DNA of 64,000 bases from sequence record MH752840.1. One strand, written 5' to 3'. The notes under the pieces are model-generated. The model was not told where the DNA came from. It saw only the letters and a list, made by a program, of their open reading frames with translations, and searched no databases. The stretch is from Escherichia phage vB_EcoM-Pr121LW. The translations under genes and the position numbers were made by a program. Positions 4,379 through 46,148 of this stretch are shown here, one piece after another (position 1 is the first letter of the stretch; each line of letters starts with the position of its first letter).

Positions 4379-4707
4379 TAGTCTTCCTCCAGGTTCAAAG
4401 GCCCTAAGATTTCATATGCCAGATTAGAAGTTACCAAAGGATCTTCTGCATCTTTAGTATTGTACCACCCATGAATAACCAGGGTCCCACTTTGTTTCAT
4501 GTCCAACTGGAACTCTTCTGCCGTTTCCTCATCCAGCTCCAAGATTTCCATAAGGTATTTGATGTTAGGAAGGTATGCAGCTGTTACAGTTCCCTCCACC
4601 AAACCTTCGGGCCAACCTACATCCGGATGACAAGTAGGAACCAAGTTGGTCAGCTTAATGGTGTACGCTTTTTCTGCACGAGCTTTCAGTAACTGGTCAA
4701 TCTTCAT
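4378..4707 (-). CDS. small acidic protein, paralog family A
   Basis: ORF, overlapping stop/start with neighbours. Confidence 0.45.
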   Translation of the reverse strand: MKIDQLLKARAEKAYTIKLTNLVPTCHPDVGWPEGLVEGTVTAAYLPNIKYLMEILELDEETAEEFQLDMKQSGTLVIHGWYNTKDAEDPLVTSNLAYEILGPLNLEED

Positions 4708-5057
4708 TATTCGTCCTCCTCTTCGGTGCCTGCTTCCAGTAATAAGTTAAGAATATCTTCTGCACAAGGCTCATAGAACTCTTGGCCTTCATTATCGATG
4801 ATTTTGTAGTCATCTCCACGAATAATCAGGGGATCACTCTCAAAATTATCAAGACCTTTAACAACGACAACACGATCGATTGCCATCATTGTAAGAACTT
4901 TATCGACATCTTCCTCTGCTACACCGTACTGCAGCAGAATGTCTTTGGTAGGAGGAACAGCATCCACCACAACACCGTTACCAAAACCTTCCGGAAGATT
5001 AGCTAAAATATCTTCCGGAACCACATTAACATCAAAACCAGTAATTTCTACTTTCAT
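4707..5057 (-). CDS. small acidic protein, paralog family A
   Basis: MKVEITGFD N-terminus, acidic tail EEEDE. Confidence 0.45.
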   Translation of the reverse strand: MKVEITGFDVNVVPEDILANLPEGFGNGVVVDAVPPTKDILLQYGVAEEDVDKVLTMMAIDRVVVVKGLDNFESDPLIIRGDDYKIIDNEGQEFYEPCAEDILNLLLEAGTEEEDE

Positions 5058-5318
5058 TTACAGCACCTCTTCGTCAACTACTTCATAAAAATGGCCTGGG
5101 ATTGCAATAGCGTTCTCACCTTCACCTACAAACACAGTTCCGTCAAGAATCAACATCATAAGAATTTCTGGAATATCCTCTTCCGGAACGTTGCCAAAAC
5201 CTTTAATCAGCTTGTAGGTTGGAAGATTTACCTCTAAGATGTCACCATCTTTAGAGCGGAAATCAACACCATCCTGAATCTCTGCCATTTCAAGGTTTTT
5301 CAGTTTAATCTTCATCAA
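5058..5318 (-). CDS. small acidic protein, paralog family A
   Basis: MMKIKLKN N-terminus, C-terminus VVDEEVL. Confidence 0.45.
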   Translation of the reverse strand: MMKIKLKNLEMAEIQDGVDFRSKDGDILEVNLPTYKLIKGFGNVPEEDIPEILMMLILDGTVFVGEGENAIAIPGHFYEVVDEEVL

Positions 5319-5394
5319 TCAGTCTCCTGTCTTGTTAAGATGAAGGTATTATTTCACACAGGGTTGGTGTTGTCAACACCTGTGTGCAAGAAAA

Positions 5395-5790
5395 TTACTG
5401 AAACAGTGCGGATAAATTACCTTCTGGTGGGAACTTATCTGCCAAAAACGGTGTTAGCACAGTAGCCTTCTGAAGATCTGGGGTCCACTCGTTGTTCAGA
5501 ACATCCCAGTAGTACGCAATGTTGCTGTGTGGGTGCCGCATTACGAACTTTTTCCCTTCGTAATCATCTGAAACCTCTACAGAAGAAATAACAACAGAAT
5601 CTTCAAGGGTTTCTTCATAGAAAGATCCGCCTTCAAATTTCCAACGAGATGCAAGAGCCCCTGCCTTGAACGCTGCAGATAAAGGACTGTCGGCAAGAAC
5701 ATACATTTCTTGCACTCTGTCGCTGCGATCTTTGCTTCTTACGTTGTATACAGTATCTGAGCTATACTCGACACGGTATAGGCTTATCAT
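5395..5790 (-). CDS. hypothetical protein, paralog of 7599-8012
   Basis: Shared HP.S...YW.....WTP motif with 7599-8012 product. Confidence 0.4.
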   Translation of the reverse strand: MISLYRVEYSSDTVYNVRSKDRSDRVQEMYVLADSPLSAAFKAGALASRWKFEGGSFYEETLEDSVVISSVEVSDDYEGKKFVMRHPHSNIAYYWDVLNNEWTPDLQKATVLTPFLADKFPPEGNLSALFQ

Positions 5791-6122
5791 TACCGCACCT
5801 CCTCAATAACTTCCACATCTGAACCAACAACAAATGCAAAAGGACAGGTTTCATGAAAGACATCCGGATCGCCGCCAAGCTTGCTAACAATTTCTCCACC
5901 ATTAATAAACACAAGCTCACCGATATTCATCAGATTGCTGAAATAGTATCCATAATGATTAAAGAATGCAGCGGGGTCAGGTAGACTAGTAGCCTCAAGC
6001 ACTACATCGGTTGAGGTTACTTTCTTATCATAACCTCTCGCCTTTTGAGATGCAAGATCTGCAGAATCCTCAGGCGACCGGAGATGCACAGGAATTGTTT
6101 CACCAATAAAGCGTACTTTCAT
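5790..6122 (-). CDS. small acidic protein, paralog family B (start at MKVRF; track ORF to 6149)
   Basis: MKVRF N-terminus and SDVEVIEE C-terminus resemble 8009-8480 paralogs. Confidence 0.4.
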   Translation of the reverse strand: MKVRFIGETIPVHLRSPEDSADLASQKARGYDKKVTSTDVVLEATSLPDPAAFFNHYGYYFSNLMNIGELVFINGGEIVSKLGGDPDVFHETCPFAFVVGSDVEVIEEVR

Positions 6123-6126
6123 ATTA

Positions 6127-6390
6127 TCACCCAACAACCATAGCTTCAAAAGGAGTCATGAACGAATAAACGGCATCATCATCTGCTTCAGGGAATGCTC
6201 CCAAAGACTTCATATCTGAGCCCTTGACAAATACAAGGTTTTGATCAAAGGCTTCTTGGGGGTCAATCCGATACATATTTCGTAAAATATCGCTTACCTC
6301 CTCATCAAGAGGTGAGTATGCTGTGCACGTTTTTCCGATCAAGCTTTGAGAATCAGGGTATCCACCTGAAGTTTTAAAATAAACAATCAT
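6127..6390 (-). CDS. hypothetical protein
   Basis: ORF in operon. Confidence 0.35.
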   Translation of the reverse strand: MIVYFKTSGGYPDSQSLIGKTCTAYSPLDEEVSDILRNMYRIDPQEAFDQNLVFVKGSDMKSLGAFPEADDDAVYSFMTPFEAMVVG

Positions 6391-6481
6391 ATAGTATCAC
6401 CTCTGGTAAGAGATTGGGACTCCTTTCCCACAAATAATTACAAATCTTCCTTAGCGAGGAAGTATGCTAATCCAAGCAGGA

Positions 6482-6751
6482 TTATTCCTCTACAATCTCA
6501 TACACATCAGGAGTTACAATCAACTCTTCTCCGTTACCCGGTGCAACAAACACCACCAAGCCTTCAGGTGTGTGCTTTTTAGCCATCTCGATAACATCTT
6601 CTCGCAGAGCTGGCTCCATCAGATCAAAACCTTCACCCAGTGCATCACGAACTACCTTCATGTAGTCCACTGGTTGTGCTTCAACGATCATGCCTTCAAC
6701 CAGTCCACAGTTTTTGTCTGCCAGCTCAGTTTTGAATAATTTAATTTTCAT
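6482..6751 (-). CDS. small acidic protein, paralog family A
   Basis: MKIKLFK N-terminus, YEIVEE C-terminus. Confidence 0.45.
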   Translation of the reverse strand: MKIKLFKTELADKNCGLVEGMIVEAQPVDYMKVVRDALGEGFDLMEPALREDVIEMAKKHTPEGLVVFVAPGNGEELIVTPDVYEIVEE

Positions 6752-6888
6752 TTAGAGGTCTCCTCAATTATTTGATATTAATAGCCGTAACCTAACACAT
6801 TAACTACAACTGCGATTGCAAACATAATTTCAAAGCATGCAATCTCTACATTTGGGACTAATTTCTTAATCACGCCCATTATAGCACC

Positions 6889-7206
6889 TCATTCTCCAAA
6901 GTCAATCTTTACTTTGCCTTTCCCCTTACCTTTCTTTCCACCGCATTTAGCCAGCTGACGTGCTGCAACATCTACCATACGGTCAGTTGCCTCGTAAGCA
7001 TCGCTACCTTTAGCTTTGGCGATAACTTCTTTCCCAGAATTGTCAAAAATAAAAGCCATAACTTCCTGGTGATCATTTTCAACTTTTACACTCACACGTG
7101 CATAGTTGGCAGATGGGTGCAAACGCTCCAGTTTGGACATTTTGTGGGAAATGAAAGACACCATACCTTCAGTGATCTCTACGTTGCCAGTGATTTCAAT
7201 TTGCAT
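6889..7206 (-). CDS. hpf: ribosome hibernation promoting factor / RaiA (ribosomal S30AE family) homolog
   Basis: MQIEITGNVEITEGM... N-terminus and spacing of KLE, VKVE, AKG.D.Y.A.D, DV.ARQL match bacterial HPF/YfiA as recalled; lysine/glycine-rich tail. Confidence 0.65.
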   Translation of the reverse strand: MQIEITGNVEITEGMVSFISHKMSKLERLHPSANYARVSVKVENDHQEVMAFIFDNSGKEVIAKAKGSDAYEATDRMVDVAARQLAKCGGKKGKGKGKVKIDFGE

Positions 7207-7598: not shown

Positions 7599-8012
7599 TC
7601 AGCTTATCTTTTCTTCAACAACCCCATAGCTTGGGGCAGAGTCAAGAGCTTTCTGGTTCAAAAGTGGTGTAGCAGAATCTGCAAACGGTGTCCAGGTTTT
7701 TGTTCTGGCATTCCAGTAATGCTTCACTCTGGAATCAGGATGCACTATAACAAAAACTTTTTCACTTGTCAACACATTAATTTCTTCCACACCCTTACTG
7801 ACAATTTCTCCGTCATAGCCCCCAGTCTGGTATCCTTCGTACCAGGTTCTTGCATAGGCATATCCGGCCTGCCAGCATGCAGCCTCTTCAGAGGTGGAGA
7901 CTACGTAGAAGTCTTTCTCAAATTCCGGGATACGCCCTTGCTTTACGCTCCAAGCTCCGCGAATTTTCATTGTAACTTTGAACAGTTTATTTTTCACAAC
8001 AGTCCCCATCAC
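7599..8012 (-). CDS. hypothetical protein, paralog of 5395-5790
   Basis: Shared IVHPDSRVKHYWNARTKTWTP motif. Confidence 0.4.
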   Translation of the reverse strand: MMGTVVKNKLFKVTMKIRGAWSVKQGRIPEFEKDFYVVSTSEEAACWQAGYAYARTWYEGYQTGGYDGEIVSKGVEEINVLTSEKVFVIVHPDSRVKHYWNARTKTWTPFADSATPLLNQKALDSAPSYGVVEEKIS

Positions 8013-8263
8013 AGCTCTAAAATATCTGCATCTGACCCTGCCCCAAAGGCATAATACGAGTCCTCTCCGAAATAATATTCCGGGGCACCAGCCGCTATTA
8101 GGTCTGATCCCAAGATGAAAACCACATTGTGGCCTACATAGCTGTGATTTTGCCGCACAGGATCATCCCACGGCAACTCTTCGAAGTATACAGCAGGTAC
8201 GACCTTTCCCTTCAGGAAGGATTGTCCCAAGTAGACGTTAGAGTCAAGAATTTTAACTTTCAT
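8009..8263 (-). CDS. small protein, paralog family B (DLIAAGA motif)
   Basis: MKVKILDS...DLIAAGA shared with 8253-8480 and 11907-12140. Confidence 0.45.
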   Translation of the reverse strand: MKVKILDSNVYLGQSFLKGKVVPAVYFEELPWDDPVRQNHSYVGHNVVFILGSDLIAAGAPEYYFGEDSYYAFGAGSDADILEL

Positions 8264-8480
8264 GATCGTCCTCCACTACCTCCACATCCTCCCCTAGGGC
8301 AAAGTTGTAGGTCCACTGACTGTCAAAGCATTCCTGAGATGCACCAGCGGCAATAAGATCTGCCCCTTTTATTTTTAAAAGGTCAGGGTAATCTTCGTTA
8401 GGGACAGCAGTAAACACTTTCCCTACTAAAAGCTCCTGACCAATATAGAAGCTTGAATCTAAAACTCTAACTTTCATCAA
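8253..8480 (-). CDS. small protein, paralog family B (DLIAAGA motif)
   Basis: MMKVRVLDS...ADLIAAGA. Confidence 0.45.
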   Translation of the reverse strand: MMKVRVLDSSFYIGQELLVGKVFTAVPNEDYPDLLKIKGADLIAAGASQECFDSQWTYNFALGEDVEVVEDDHES

Positions 8481-8764
8481 CGGTCTCCATCAGGTGGTTG
8501 TGGGACGTAAACACTGTTACGAATATCGTCCGCAGTATAGTAATAAGTGTCTCCAACCCTATCTCTAGCTGCAATGTACTCTGCTATACCAATAAGTGCC
8601 ATTGATTTGGTGGCGTATCTTCCCAACTCGTTAGCTCCCCAGTAGAATTTAGACCAATAGGGAATAAGACCGAACAAATATACCTTTTGACGAACTTCCC
8701 AGTAAGTGCCTTTCCCGACAAGTTTAAACTCGACTTCACCACTGTTAATCTTTTTCATTATCAA
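8477..8764 (-). CDS. hypothetical protein
   Basis: ORF with 4-nt overlaps. Confidence 0.35.
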   Translation of the reverse strand: MIMKKINSGEVEFKLVGKGTYWEVRQKVYLFGLIPYWSKFYWGANELGRYATKSMALIGIAEYIAARDRVGDTYYYTADDIRNSVYVPQPPDGDR

Positions 8765-9156
8765 TCTCCCTCCACCGTGGTCGGATTGTCAGTAAGAAAT
8801 TGAGCATTAGCTGGAGGAACACCTGACATTTTCCACACAACCATAAGTTTGTAACCAGGCACTCTATTAAGTGCAGATCGAGTAGAGTTTGTGCACGTAT
8901 ACTTTCGCTTTCCAAACCCGTTCTCCATCATAATCCAGTACCCAGTATCTTTGTCACCAGGTATTGGTAGACCACCTTCATCAACCCACTGAATGGACCA
9001 CGGCACGATGGCTACAGCTTTATATTTAAACTTTTTAAACCACTGAAAAAGTTTCATAATCCAGCCTCGCATAGACATAATCACTATAAACAGGCAAACA
9101 ATGAATCCGAATGCCACGCCACCCATAAACGTTAATATTGATGCAATCATAGTCAA
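8761..9156 (-). CDS. hypothetical membrane-anchored protein
   Basis: N-terminal hydrophobic helix IASILTFMGGVAFGFIVCLFIVIM. Confidence 0.35.
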   Translation of the reverse strand: MTMIASILTFMGGVAFGFIVCLFIVIMSMRGWIMKLFQWFKKFKYKAVAIVPWSIQWVDEGGLPIPGDKDTGYWIMMENGFGKRKYTCTNSTRSALNRVPGYKLMVVWKMSGVPPANAQFLTDNPTTVEGD

Positions 9157-42149: not shown

Positions 42150-42178
42150 TTGACAAACTTTGCTTAACAGTGTAATAT
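42150..42178 (+). promoter_or_regulatory. sigma70-like promoter TTGACA-17-TAATAT driving the tRNA cluster
   Basis: Consensus -35 with 17-nt spacer ~60 nt upstream of first tRNA. Confidence 0.55.
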
Positions 42179-42236: not shown

Positions 42237-42311
42237 GCCCTGTTAGCTTAGTGGATAAAGCAGCGGCCTTCTAAGCCGTTGACACTGGTTCGAGTCCAGT
42301 ACGGGGTGCCA
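42237..42311 (+). tRNA. tRNA-Arg (anticodon TCT)
   Basis: Manual cloverleaf: 7-bp acceptor stem, D-stem GCTT/AAGC, anticodon loop CTTCTAA, T-loop TTCGAGT, encoded CCA. Confidence 0.75.
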
Positions 42312-42442
42312 AGTTCTTTTTAATGTAGCTTACTTTAGCAGAGTAAATCTTCGGCAAGTGGCGGTAACCACTTTTACCGATACCTCATAGTTAGTGGTGA
42401 GAACACTAGCTATTTTAAAAAGAATTTAAATATTAGTATTTA

Positions 42443-42530
42443 GGTGAGTTAATTCCGTAGGGGTAGCGGGGCAGACTGTAAATCTGTTATCATTGCGATT
42501 CGGGTGGTTCGACTCCATCACTCACCACCA
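42443..42530 (+). tRNA. tRNA-Tyr (anticodon GTA), long variable arm
   Basis: Perfect 7-bp acceptor stem GGTGAGT/ACTCACC, anticodon arm GCAGA-CTGTAAA-TCTGT, T-loop TTCGACT, CCA; 88 nt. Confidence 0.7.
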
Positions 42531-42644
42531 AATTTATATTTTTAAATGCATAAATTATACAGATAATGGCATTGATATTTATCGTCGTTTATACTAGTCA
42601 CTAACTGCTCGAAAATCAGTGTCATTATCAGTATTGTTTATAAA

Positions 42645-42735
42645 AGAGGGTAGGGAGCAATGGTGCTCAAGCGGTCTTGAAAACCGTCCCGTTGAGGATG
42701 ACTCGATGATGGTTCGATTCCATTACCCTCTGCCA
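42645..42735 (+). tRNA. tRNA-Ser (anticodon TGA), long variable arm
   Basis: Perfect 7-bp acceptor stem AGAGGGT/ACCCTCT, anticodon loop CTTGAAA, T-loop TTCGATT, CCA; 91 nt. Confidence 0.7.
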
Positions 42736-42833
42736 TATTGTTGACCTTGTAATTAAGCGAAAGCCGGAAGCAGAACCGGATTATCAAATGTTACAGTCGT
42801 CATCGCCGACTAGCAACATTGTCAACATACTGA

Positions 42834-42932
42834 GCTAGGTAAGCCCTTTGGCAAGGGCGAGGATTTTTAATCCTGAAAATAGACGAGGTAGTCGTTGAAT
42901 ACATAGGTGGTTCGATTCCACCACCTAGCACC
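42834..42932 (+). tRNA. atypical tRNA-like gene (anticodon loop TTTTTAA, possibly Lys-TTT), ~30-nt extra region, no full CCA
   Basis: Acceptor GCTAGGT/ACCTAGC, D-arm GCCC-TTTGGCAA-GGGC, T-arm GGTGG-TTCGATT-CCACC are clean; anticodon stem and variable region are irregular. Confidence 0.35.
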
Positions 42933-42937
42933 TTTTT

Positions 42938-43013
42938 GCTGATGTAGCACAATTGGTAGTGCAATTGATTTGTAATCAATAGGTTGCAGGTTCAAGTCCT
43001 GCCATCAGCACCA
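42938..43013 (+). tRNA. tRNA-Thr (anticodon TGT)
   Basis: Acceptor GCTGATG/CATCAGC, D-stem GCAC/GTGC, anticodon arm ATTGA-TTTGTAA-TCAAT, T-loop TTCAAGT, CCA. Confidence 0.8.
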
Positions 43014-43014
43014 T

Positions 43015-43089
43015 GGCCCTGTAGCTGGAAGGTTCAAGCAAGCGACTCATAATCGCCAGACGGTGGTTCAATTCCACCCAGGGCCACCA
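43015..43089 (+). tRNA. tRNA-Met or tRNA-Ile2 (anticodon CAT), elongator type
   Basis: Acceptor GGCCCTG/CAGGGCC with G1-C72 pair, anticodon loop CTCATAA, T-arm GGTGG-TTCAATT-CCACC, CCA. Confidence 0.7.
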
Positions 43090-43100
43090 AATAGTAAATA

Positions 43101-43177
43101 CTCCGCGTAGCTCAGCTTGGTAGAGCGCCTGATTTGGGATCAGGAGGTCGAGTGTTCGAATCACTCCGTGGAGACCA
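43101..43177 (+). tRNA. tRNA-Pro (anticodon TGG)
   Basis: C1-G72 acceptor pair as in bacterial tRNA-Pro, D-stem GCTC/GAGC, anticodon arm CCTGA-TTTGGGA-TCAGG, T-loop TTCGAAT, CCA. Confidence 0.8.
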
Positions 43178-43997: not shown

Positions 43998-44281
43998 GAG
44001 TTGCTGCACTGTTTATTGTGTGCTTTTTATTATGCGGGTGTGCAACCAGCGTTGAGAGAGAATACAAGATTGACCCTCCTGATGTAGGAAGGTTGATTGT
44101 TAAACCCCCGGAAGGTGCCATGAAACCACCTGCTAAAGCTATGCCTTTGAAGAAAGGTGCGCCAGATGCAGTGAATTCTGGCATTATGAGGGATAATAAT
44201 CTGTCTTGTAGCAATGATAGAGCTAAATTGATCATTTTGCAAGACTATATTAGAACACTGTTTCCAAAGGAGAGAGGTTAA
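43994..44281 (+). CDS. o-spanin (Rz1-like) outer-membrane lipoprotein
   Basis: Signal peptide with lipobox-like LLCGCAT, proline-rich mature region; 4-nt overlap with previous gene. Confidence 0.5.
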   Translation: MRVAALFIVCFLLCGCATSVEREYKIDPPDVGRLIVKPPEGAMKPPAKAMPLKKGAPDAVNSGIMRDNNLSCSNDRAKLIILQDYIRTLFPKERG

Positions 44282-44706
44282 TGTCTAAGATTTACGGACC
44301 GTGTTCTGAAAAGCAGAAGATGATCCTCGAAAACGATGCAGATATTTTGGTAATCGGCGGTGCCGCAGGGTCTGGCAAGTCGTTCCTCTTGCAGTTGATG
44401 CCGCTTAAAATTATCGATGACCCCCACAGCTCTGTGGTTATGTTCCGAAGAACAACCCCACAGTTGGAAGGTGAGGGTGGACTATGGCCTAAAGCAGTAG
44501 CTATTTATAGCGATCTGCCTGAAAACATTAAGCCAAAGTTCAGAGAGAAGGATCATAAGTTCATTTTTCCACGGTTTGATCCGAACACTGGCAAGTGGGA
44601 TAGAAGCAAAAAGGGAGCTGTTGTAAAATACTGCCACATGGAGTATGTACAAGATAAGCTTAACCATCAAGGGCTTGAGTACACCATGGTTTGCTTCGAT
44701 GAGGGT
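44281..44706 (+). CDS. terminase large subunit, exon 1 (ATPase N-terminal part)
   Basis: Walker A GGAAGSGKS and Walker B MVCFDE; frame closes with TAA right at the intron start. Confidence 0.7.
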
Positions 44707-45026
44707 TAATTTGTAGCTCTCGTAAAACCTCCCTAATTGCGGGGAAATCTTTACTATTAATACCACCAACCTGTCATGGTAACATGATAGAGGCTTCGAA
44801 GAGAGATCGAAGGTATGGTAACAGTGTGTTAATTTAGATAATCCGCAGCGAAGCATCCGAGAGGATGAACGTTCAACGACTAGTCGAAAGACGTAGAATC
44901 AAGCGATTCGAAACGGGAGGGTAAGCGGTTGTTGTCGCTTATAAGATATAGTCTGGTCTGCATGGAGACATGCAGCTGCCTGAAAAATGGCGGGGCAAGA
45001 CTAGCGACCTTGCCCGAACATAGACG
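44707..45026 (+). ncRNA. group I self-splicing intron (ORF-less) in the terminase large subunit gene; boundaries approximate
   Basis: Conserved elements in order: P AATTGCGGGGAAA (~44737), Q AATCCGCAGC (~44842), R GTTCAACGACTAGTC (~44870), S AAGATATAGTC (~44940); intron begins GGT|TAATT like T4 td; no ORF inside. Confidence 0.65.
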
Positions 45027-46148
45027 ACACAATTCGAATGGGAGCAGATAGACTATCTGATGTCTCGTCTGCGATCTCAGTCAAAGTATCCATCAAGGAT
45101 GGTTATCAGCTGTAACCCTGATTCAGAACACATGCTTGCCAAACTGGTTAGATGGTGGTTGGACGATGAAGGGTATCCAGATCCGGAGAAATGTGGTAAG
45201 AAAAGATATTTTATCCGACGCGACGGTGAATTTATTTGGGGGGACTCTAAGGAGGAGTTGATAGAGAAATACACCACGGTTAACGGACTGGGTGTAGAGA
45301 TCAAGCCAAGACCGTTGTCATTCTCGTTCATAGGCGCAACAATATTCGATAATCCTGTCTGTTTGAGAGACAACCCAGAATACCTTGCTTTCCTCGAAGG
45401 TCTACCAGAGCTGGAAAAAGCTCAGCTTCTCCATGGTAACTGGTTTGCAAAGCCTGAGGGTGCAAACTATTTTCAAAGATCTTTCCTTCGTGATGCCGAT
45501 AGAGTACCCCTTGGATCAGTATCTTGCAGGGCATGGGATAAGGCAGGAACCGAGAGAACTTCTGGCAATAAATTTCCTGACTTTACTGCCAGTATTAAGG
45601 TAAGTAAAGATAGCGACGGCTTTTATTACCTGTCAGGGGATTATTGTCCTGAAAACGTGGATGACGGGAGGTATTCCACAGGTCTGGAAGGCAAGTTCTG
45701 TAAAAAGGCTGGTGAACGAGATGTGATCATCAGGAAACAGGCGCAGTTTGATGGTGATGATTGCATAATCGTATTCTCTGTGGACCCTGGTCAGGCAGGT
45801 AAGAGTGAGTTCTTAACCTCATCCAGATCCTTGCTCGCAGAAGGGTTCAGGGTTGAAGAAGACCCAATGCCTTCCAACAAGTCTAAACTGACAAGGTTCT
45901 CACCTTTTGCCAATCTTGCCCAACAAGGGATGGTGAGGATTGTAAAATCCAGTTTCCATCCTGATACTCTGGAAGCATTTCTGACCGAACTTGAAAAATT
46001 CAACGGGGAAAGATCAACATTTAACAGAAAAGACGACTGGGCTGACTGTGTAGCTTCTGCAATTAATTTCCTGGAGAAAGAGGAGGTAGCACTTCCTTGT
46101 GTGATTCCATCAATCTCATCACCTTCTATGTTCAAGCGTTTTATCTAG
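45027..46148 (+). CDS. terminase large subunit, exon 2 (nuclease domain); exon start uncertain within 45027-45060
   Basis: Frame open from 45024; 45027 follows a G and restores frame with exon 1; product size and position before the putative portal gene. Confidence 0.6.
   Translation, partial: TQFEWEQIDYLMSRLRSQSKYPSRMVISCNPDSEHMLAKLVRWWLDDEGYPDPEKCGKKRYFIRRDGEFIWGDSKEELIEKYTTVNGLGVEIKPRPLSFSFIGATIFDNPVCLRDNPEYLAFLEGLPELEKAQLLHGNWFAKPEGANYFQRSFLRDADRVPLGSVSCRAWDKAGTERTSGNKFPDFTASIKVSKDSDGFYYLSGDYCPENVDDGRYSTGLEGKFCKKAGERDVIIRKQAQFDGDDCIIVFSVDPGQAGKSEFLTSSRSLLAEGFRVEEDPMPSNKSKLTRFSPFANLAQQGMVRIVKSSFHPDTLEAFLTELEKFNGERSTFNRKDDWADCVASAINFLEKEEVALPCVIPSISSPSMFKRFI

Follow-up and report, generated by a model that had tools for sequence, protein, structure and literature searches.

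An irregular long-arm tRNA-like RNA of an rV5-like phage and its predicted family in phage tRNA arrays

What kind of RNA is encoded by an irregular tRNA-like gene that lies among six ordinary transfer RNA (tRNA) genes of Escherichia phage vB_EcoM-Pr121LW? The gene, hereafter the element, occupies 99 nucleotides (nt) on the plus strand at 42834-42932 of the window, the 64,000-nt stretch of sequence record MH752840.1 analysed here. An earlier note on this DNA had described an atypical tRNA-like gene at this place within a six-tRNA array, and ARAGORN and Rfam agree with that description. Comparative analysis of the sequences points to a conserved yet previously undescribed family of irregular 'long-arm' tRNA-like RNAs in phage tRNA arrays, of which the element is one member. 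The note's proposal of an unusual tRNA or a tRNA-derived RNA is supported as a class.

Architecture and conservation of the fold

ARAGORN places a gene at exactly 42834-42932(+) and reports it as 'tRNA-???', with a forced four-base anticodon 'atcc'. The Rfam tRNA model (RF00005) matches positions 42834-42930 with 37.1 bits against a gathering score of 29; in the alignment position 26 is deleted, the 27:43 pair is non-standard, and 26 extra nt precede the T arm. Both programs keep the boundaries and the non-standard features, and neither gives the standard tRNA with other boundaries that the earlier note had allowed for. The two covariance models of the family, R1 and R2, score the window copy at 113.3 and 106.4 bits, respectively, and its predicted minimum free energy is -36.8 kcal/mol (z = -4.1), with equally stable folds in 0 of 200 shuffles. 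The parts of the element are as follows, with the basis of each given in parentheses.

42834..42932, + strand: whole tRNA-like gene, 99 nt (ARAGORN, Rfam, family covariance models, folding energy)
42834..42840, + strand: 5′ strand of the acceptor stem, GCTAGGT (GCUAGGU in RNA), pairing with ACCTAGC (ACCUAGC) at 42923-42929 (covariation)
42841..42842, + strand: positions 8-9, AA (read from the sequence)
42843..42858, + strand: D arm, GCCC-TTTGGCAA-GGGC, as RNA GCCC-UUUGGCAA-GGGC (covariation, RNAfold, RNAalifold)
42859..42875, + strand: shortened anticodon-like arm, G, AGGAT-TTTTA-ATCCT, G, with a 15-nt hairpin (stem covariation)
42875..42881, + strand: conserved 5′ linker, GAAAATA (family conservation)
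42882..42896, + strand: extra-arm hairpin, GACGA-GGTAG-TCGTT, a variable 'cassette' (predicted hairpin, swaps among phages)
42897..42905, + strand: conserved 3′ linker, GAATACATA, as RNA GAAUACAUA (family conservation)
42906..42922, + strand: T arm, GGTGG-TTCGATT-CCACC, T loop UUCGAUU (covariation)
42930..42937, + strand: discriminator A and CC, then a T5 spacer up to tRNA-Thr at 42938 (read from the sequence)

Pairing was assessed on 38 distinct sequences of the family, and the conservation of the linkers on 35 distinct main-family sequences. The cloverleaf pairs are retained in 98.4% of cells, and 18 of the 22 pairs show both-sided (compensatory) changes; in a control with the 3′ partners slid by one to three columns, 31–45% of cells were paired and one to six pairs carried compensatory changes. 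No column shuffle matched the observed covariation score, and RNAalifold independently recovers the same four helices. The acceptor stem is paired in 100% of cells with compensatory changes in all seven pairs, and the T stem is also paired in 100% of cells, with a compensatory change in three pairs; covariation is found in three of the four D-stem pairs and in four of the five pairs of the anticodon-like stem. Two additional U-A pairs in the D stem, obtained from both RNAfold and RNAalifold, are nearly invariant (46/47) and hence not assessable by covariation. The D arm may alternatively be modelled as a stem of 6 base pairs (bp) capped by a UGGC tetraloop. Conservation of the core, taken as the first 47 and last 36 nt, reaches 97–100% identity where the upstream 400 nt, itself largely tRNA genes, is only ~80% identical.

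The strongest single evidence for what would be a true tRNA L-shape comes from a tertiary pair. The elbow pair between G19 (42851) and C56 (42913) is G:C in 29 sequences, U:A in nine and broken in none. U19 occurs only in the nine sequences that have A56 in the T loop, where the D loop TTTGTCAA is always combined with TTAGATT (in RNA, UUUGUCAA with UUAGAUU), and it is this switch from G19:C56 to U19:A56 that carries the argument. Other positions differ from the usual tRNA: position 8 is A in all 35 distinct main-family sequences, replacing U8, and the D loop begins with U where A14 is usual, an A8/U14 combination that is the reverse of U8:A14.

The anticodon-like arm is the first major irregularity. 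In all members the hairpin enclosed by two G's has 15 nt, or 16 nt in Seunavirus and Mydovirus, versus 17 nt in a canonical tRNA; it can be read as 5 bp with a 5–6-nt loop or as 4 bp with a 7-nt loop. The earlier note had taken the two G's for a clash in the anticodon stem. A G-G clash does result if a 5-bp stem with a 7-nt loop is forced, and it appears only because of this forcing; the two G's occupy the normal non-Watson–Crick 26/44 place, so that the arm has no defect there. The stack from the D stem to the loop is one layer short.

The sequence of the loop varies between, and even within, lineages. The nominal anticodon TTT pointed out in the earlier note can indeed be read in the window, as a lineage-specific rather than family-wide feature: it is TAT in Avunavirus and NCC, TCA or TCG elsewhere. 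The loop is UUUUA in Vequintavirus versus UUAUA in Avunavirus, with cores that are 96–97% identical. Seunavirus and Mydovirus have the 6-nt loops CAUCCA, CUUCCA, CCACCA, CAGCCA and CCUCCA, and three sequences, one with each of the first three of these loops, differ from one another at the two central loop bases and nowhere else in the molecule. The loop of GE_vB_MG is CAUCA, and the remaining lineages have AUCAA, AUCGA or AUCGC. Written as 7-nt loops, most lineages follow Y-A-U-C-R-A-A, a UCA or UCG 'anticodon' with A33, which is the widespread form and probably the ancestral one; as a baseline, the canonical tRNAs of the same loci have U33 in 324 of 340 cases and A33 in three.

The second major irregularity is the insertion between the anticodon-like arm and the T arm, which measures 31 nt in the window, in keeping with the ~30 extra nt and separate hairpin noticed earlier, and 38–41 nt in most members. 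Far from an oddity of one copy, this extra sequence is a hallmark of the family, with the layout G(A/U)AAA.., hairpin, ..AAUAC(A/G)U(A/U). The single-stranded linkers (GAAAA.. and ..AAUACAUA) are among the family's most conserved stretches, the 5′ linker G-(A/U)-AAA being invariant or nearly so across the main-family sequences and the 3′ linker reading AAUAC-AUA. No consistent Watson–Crick complementarity was found between the two linkers, which RNAfold pairs in a few members only.

Nearly all members are predicted to form a hairpin between the linkers, and the sequences of these hairpins are unrelated. Hairpins unrelated to one another occur on the 100% identical cores of phages GAP31, FENT2, KB57 and 4MG; those of KB57 and VIK251 differ even though the upstream sequences of these two phages are 99% identical; and a single type of hairpin, whose 13-nt loop is NGAACUAACAGUA(C), is shared by Mydovirus, Seunavirus, Henunavirus, Salmonella phage UTK0002 and metagenomic phages. 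On these comparisons, the extra-arm hairpin is exchanged between phages like a cassette. In sum, the molecule varies mainly at two tips, one being the middle of the anticodon-like loop and the other the extra-arm hairpin, and the core is frozen.

Distribution and genomic setting

A BLAST search with the 121-nt region around the element returned near-identical copies in 167 phage records and a copy of ~92% identity in Avunavirus. Reading the loci around short T-arm matches gave full-length homologs in Seunavirus (GAP31, PVP-SE1, SSE-121, 4MG, GE_vB_MG, FENT2 and Csp-D17) and in Mydovirus (KB57, VIK251 and NDO71), where the copies are not annotated as a gene in any record examined. The covariance model, built first from five homologs and then rebuilt on 29, was run on loci from pattern scans of IMG/VR, JGI/ENA metagenomes and species-representative genomes; the first viral-contig pattern scan gave 47 loci, just nine of which the model confirmed. 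The covariance-model searches yielded 47 matches, 38 of them distinct, in Vequintavirinae, Stephanstirmvirinae (PD06, PHB05, ECGD1, muut and others), one Schitoviridae phage and metagenomic phage contigs; Henunavirus is represented by Erwinia phage Hena1. The single Schitoviridae copy, in UTK0002, was probably acquired by recent transfer, because it is 88.5% identical to the copy of an Erwinia Vequintavirinae phage. In the metagenomic phage contigs, the arrays with the element adjoin genes for NAPRTase and PRPP synthetase, and three contigs of low GC content with a family member also hold a weaker paralog (~35 bits) ~2 kb off.

Outside phages, no copy of the element was found in 5,426 complete Escherichia coli genomes or 72,556 plasmids, and an origin from the host or a plasmid was rejected on that ground. 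Among 185,579 species represented by one genome each, the pattern used gave 20 matches, all of which were rejected by the covariance model. Comparison of the 5′ and 3′ core with 350 distinct ARAGORN tRNAs from the fetched loci gave no consistent best isotype: the GAP31 copy is weakly Cys-like, and other copies resemble Thr, Tyr or Ser.

Rfam holds no dedicated family for the element, just matches within tRNA and tRNA-Sec clans. Its matches to YrlA (25 bits) and to permuted transfer-messenger RNA (tmRNA; 17.2 bits) lie at other coordinates, well under the thresholds; a tmRNA was rejected, as ARAGORN reports none and this is the only Rfam match of tmRNA type, elsewhere in the region. For the three non-rV5 versions tried, namely the copies from Stephanstirmvirinae (L083), Hena1 (L065) and the low-GC contig L088, no Rfam family passed at gathering thresholds.

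The same gene appears in GenBank as tRNA-Lys, tRNA-OTHER, tRNA-Pseudo, tRNA-TERM, 'tRNA-???(atcc)' or without a label. Records of the BASEL collection call it tRNA-Lys, codon AAA; those of Hena1 and pEp_SNUABM_01 call it 'tRNA-TERM'; and the rV5 genome paper (PMC3606486) lists six tRNAs and omits the element. No description of the family was found in the literature searched on Vequintavirinae and Hena1.

The source phage is an rV5-like myovirus, and its 1.15-kb tRNA region is 98–99% identical to those of ECML-10, JEP1 and other Vequintavirus genomes. The array is arranged as follows.

42150..42178, + strand: sigma-70-like promoter match, TTGACA-17-TAATAT (consensus scan, 10/12 matches; not evidence of function)
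42237..43177, + strand: tRNA array holding the element (ARAGORN and Rfam)
42237-42311, + strand: tRNA-Arg
42443-42527, + strand: tRNA-Tyr
42645-42735, + strand: tRNA-Ser
42834-42932, + strand: the element
42938-43013, + strand: tRNA-Thr
43015-43089, + strand: tRNA with anticodon CAT
43101-43177, + strand: tRNA-Pro

The six flanking tRNAs named in the earlier note are all recovered, Arg-TCT, Ser-TGA, Thr-TGT, CAT and Pro-TGG by ARAGORN and tRNA-Tyr by Rfam, with 39 bits. The promoter match upstream of tRNA-Arg is the likely start of transcription for the entire cluster, as far as the consensus can tell.

Transcripts of tRNA operons are matured by RNase P, by 3′ exonucleases or RNase BN/Z, and by the CCA-adding enzyme. 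Outside the rV5-like lineage, nearly every copy of the element begins 1–4 nt past the CCA of the upstream tRNA. N-CCA, usually U-CCA, is encoded by most members; Avunavirus has no CCA, and the window copy ends in A-CC followed by TTTTT, the incomplete CCA already seen in the earlier note. The discriminator is A, U or C across the family and U or C in Avunavirus. By analogy with the neighbouring tRNAs, the element would be released from the array transcript in the same way as they are.

Several features of the arrays were recorded alongside. The window's array spacers at 42312-42442 and 42530-42644 (+) are strongly structured themselves: a stem of 11 bp closes the 131-nt Arg–Tyr spacer, which contains three hairpins (z = -3.8), and the Tyr–Ser spacer forms a long hairpin (z = -4.4). 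The block between Arg and Tyr is absent in many rV5-like genomes, where the two genes are 4 nt apart. A group I catalytic intron lies ~1.8 kb downstream of the array at 44697-44975 (+), between open reading frames (ORFs) 44281-44709 and 45060-46148 (Rfam RF00028, 84.1 bits versus a gathering score of 50). In Escherichia phage 241Ecol014PP (OR062943.1), a 99% identical relative, an HNH endonuclease gene is annotated at the tRNA-array match, which is split in two. A search of the window for an antisense target of the extra arm gave only two matches with three mismatches, versus 0.75 expected by chance, and such a target was rejected.

Other arrays hold unusual tRNAs as well. The tRNA directly upstream of the element is irregular in KB57 (L005:1351-1425) and Csp-D17 (L058:327-403), with an ARAGORN '?' and a 2- or 4-base anticodon. 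The UTK0002 array contains two more unannotated tRNA-like genes (L060:1168-1248 and L060:1338-1425); in one, 22 extra nt interrupt the anticodon region (37.4 bits with the Rfam tRNA model), and the other is of class II and Ser(UGA)-like (30.1 bits with the tRNA-Sec model). The 866-kb metagenome contig L111 carries a highly repetitive Gly/Val/Arg/Met tRNA array (4400-7200, 7632-8930; also in L088 and L119) with one family member and a ~35-bit paralog whose loop is CCUCAAA, and this array adjoins an ORF with RRXRR and HNH domains (IscB-like). Metagenomic arrays with the element also include amber-suppressor-like tRNA(CUA) genes (L104:7862-7934, L130:2791-2865 and L111:4613-4685), and L111 has a class-I tRNA(UCA) in addition.

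Comparison with known RNAs

Like canonical and class-II tRNAs (RF00005), the element has a 7/5 acceptor/T helix, a 7-nt T loop (UUCGAUU) that fits UUCRANY, G18G19 in the D loop with the G19:C56 elbow, a position in a tandem array, N-CCA in most members, and a stem-loop between the anticodon and T arms. However, a canonical anticodon arm has 17 nt (5 bp and a 7-nt loop) with U33 and a purine at position 37, whereas the arm of the element has 15–16 nt and mostly A33; U8/A14 is replaced by A8/U14; and instead of a variable region of 4–5 nt, or a class-II arm with linkers of 1–2 nt, there are conserved single-stranded linkers of 7 and 9 nt. The anticodon of a canonical tRNA is stable among close relatives, unlike the loop of the element. 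The element would work as a tRNA or a tRNA mimic, yet by its anticodon-arm length, variable region and anticodon stability it is not a canonical elongator.

Some of these irregularities are shared with tRNA-Sec and the allo-tRNAs, namely the long extra arm, the possible 6-bp D stem with a 4-nt loop, UCA in many members (loop C-N-U-C-A-A-A) and U73 in most; the nominal anticodons of allo-tRNAs and SelC* are likewise highly diverse, UAU included (PMC5389517). In contrast, tRNA-Sec (RF01852) has an 8/5 helix, a 6-bp anticodon stem and G73, compared with 7/5, 4–5 bp and A, U or C73 in the element, and its UCA anticodon is not that of the window copy (UUU), although many relatives have UCA in Y-A-U-C-A-A-A loops. 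The best Rfam tRNA-Sec score, 39.1 bits for the UTK0002 copy, is below the gathering score of 47, and the window copy is assigned to tRNA instead. Allo-tRNAs have an 8/4 or 9/3 acceptor/T helix (PMC5389517), whereas the 7/5 helix of the element is supported by covariation. Moreover, tRNA-Sec and allo-tRNAs of this kind come from Clostridia, Acidobacteria and delta-proteobacteria, and the element, with its long conserved linkers, from virulent enterobacterial phages. Non-translational roles have been suspected for allo-tRNAs, and some irregular tRNAs are charged but unused in translation (Mukai et al. 2017, PMC5389517).

A chromosomal parallel is the tRNA-Other of Bacillus cereus, which is described as tRNA-shaped, not translational and associated with a cellular phenotype (PMC3399842), and as charged non-canonically (cited in PMC5389517). 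It has another architecture, and the likeness is one of description.

In genomic position, and in having no assigned function, the element comes closest to the species 1 and 2 RNAs of phage T4 (rnaC and rnaD), which are not homologous to it. These small non-tRNA RNAs lie in or beside the phage tRNA cluster and are matured together with the tRNAs, and a tRNA-like T arm is visible at the 3′ end of rnaC. Unlike the element, they measure 119–139 nt and are not full cloverleaves. Homology was rejected after a search with model R1 with filters off, which gave 6.4 bits (E = 2) on rnaC and nothing on rnaD.

Possible roles of the element

The reading that we favour, with about even confidence, is a tRNA mimic or special-purpose tRNA that is processed like a tRNA, adopts an L shape and acts through its two variable tips. 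The element would be transcribed together with the tRNA array, released like its neighbours by RNase P, 3′-trimming and CCA-adding enzymes, and folded into an L with an additional arm. Its invariant core and linkers would engage tRNA-handling or other proteins, and the variable tips would give specificity for a partner; candidates are a host defence nuclease or toxin that targets tRNA, an aminoacyl-tRNA synthetase, or a phage protein. Co-evolution with a partner would be expected to leave such a pattern, in which the core is frozen and the tips diversify, and the element is probably not an ordinary codon reader.

Several points weigh against this reading. The window loop can be read as a 7-nt Lys loop, U32-U33-UUU-A37-A38, on a 4-bp stem and with A73; some depositors have annotated tRNA-Lys (BASEL, codon AAA), and Hena1-type copies tRNA-TERM. 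The discriminator loosely tracks the nominal anticodon (UUU with A73, NCC with U73, UCG with A73), which hints at real aminoacylation identities. Several lineages are closely related, so that independent substitution events are fewer than the cell counts given above suggest. Finally, Escherichia phage JES2013 has lost most of the element along with tRNA-Ser and the 3′ end of tRNA-Tyr, which shows that a phage can do without the element, at least in the conditions of its isolation. At this locus of JES2013 (L156:640-740) a chimeric gene fuses the 5′ part of tRNA-Tyr to the 3′ acceptor strand of the element, and the deletion arose by recombination between the similar T arms of tRNA-Tyr and the element.

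The main alternative, possible though less likely, is that the element actually decodes: as an irregular tRNA-Lys(UUU) of class-II-like form in rV5-like phages, and as an opal suppressor (UCA) or a Gly or Arg reader elsewhere. A host synthetase would charge it and the ribosome would use it, for instance in place of host tRNA-Lys cut by nucleases of the PrrC, RloC or PARIS type. A U-U-UUU-A-A loop and A73 are identity elements for lysyl-tRNA synthetase (LysRS); the rV5-like phages are without any other tRNA-Lys; N-CCA is present in most lineages and the elbow is intact; and suppressor-like tRNAs do occur in phage tRNA arrays. However, a 15-nt arm leaves the stack from D stem to loop one layer short, and Avunavirus, for all its similarity in the core, has UAU rather than UUU and a U or C discriminator. 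The 6-nt loops of Seunavirus and Mydovirus and the A33 of most other lineages are equally hard to reconcile with decoding, and the GAP31 array already has a canonical tRNA-Gly(UCC) beside its NCC-type copy. For plain decoding, an insertion of 31–41 nt with conserved linkers and a swappable hairpin would be superfluous. By way of comparison, some irregular tRNAs were charged without serving in translation (PMC5389517).

We consider it unlikely that the element is a counter-defence RNA of the phage, a tRNA decoy or inhibitor that in rV5-like phages would mimic tRNA-Lys(UUU). The host's tRNA-Lys(UUU) is among the tRNAs that anticodon nucleases (PrrC, RloC and PARIS) are known to cut. A decoy role is attractive because the rV5-like loop U-UUUUA-A and the switch of the discriminator to A73 resemble, at the level of sequence, this nuclease-targeted tRNA. 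The frozen core would then serve as a binding site for immune effectors of the host, either PrrC-, RloC- or PARIS-like anticodon nucleases or acceptor-modifying toxins, and the anticodon-like loop and extra-arm cassette would be the fast-evolving determinants of specificity in an arms race.

Less probable still is a module acting in cis, in which a tRNA-shaped handle guides cutting by RNase P or RNase E, or serves as a partial terminator, and the released RNA has no role of its own. Such a module would suit the spacing of 1–4 nt from the upstream tRNA in most lineages and the similar position of the T4 stable RNAs of unknown role, and in the window both the T arm and acceptor with U5 and the D arm with its U-run score as terminator-like. 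Yet an ordinary tRNA would suffice as a handle for RNase P, and the conserved linkers, intact elbow, encoded CCA and diversifying tips are left unexplained. Termination itself was rejected as a reading of the family, the U-runs being confined to rV5-like copies and absent in other lineages.

A decaying duplicate with an insertion, or an annotation artefact, as the labels tRNA-Pseudo and tRNA-OTHER of some depositors and the loss in JES2013 might suggest and as the earlier note had left open for a pseudogene, is highly improbable given compensatory changes in 18 of 22 pairs, a covarying tertiary pair, conservation of cloverleaf and elbow across several genera with a core more conserved than its flanks, and retention across two subfamilies with transferral to a Schitoviridae phage.

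More than 150 deposited phage genomes label this gene inconsistently, which a family model would correct, and such a model would also end its counting as a Lys or suppressor tRNA in studies of codon usage and recoding. The element is kept by phages of E. coli, Klebsiella, Salmonella, Cronobacter and Erwinia that are therapeutic candidates. As an easily deletable RNA with a frozen core and two variable tips, it makes a concrete candidate for a phage 'tRNA' gene that does something other than decode. The question is as old as the T4 species 1 and 2 RNAs and of current interest, as several anti-phage systems target tRNAs.

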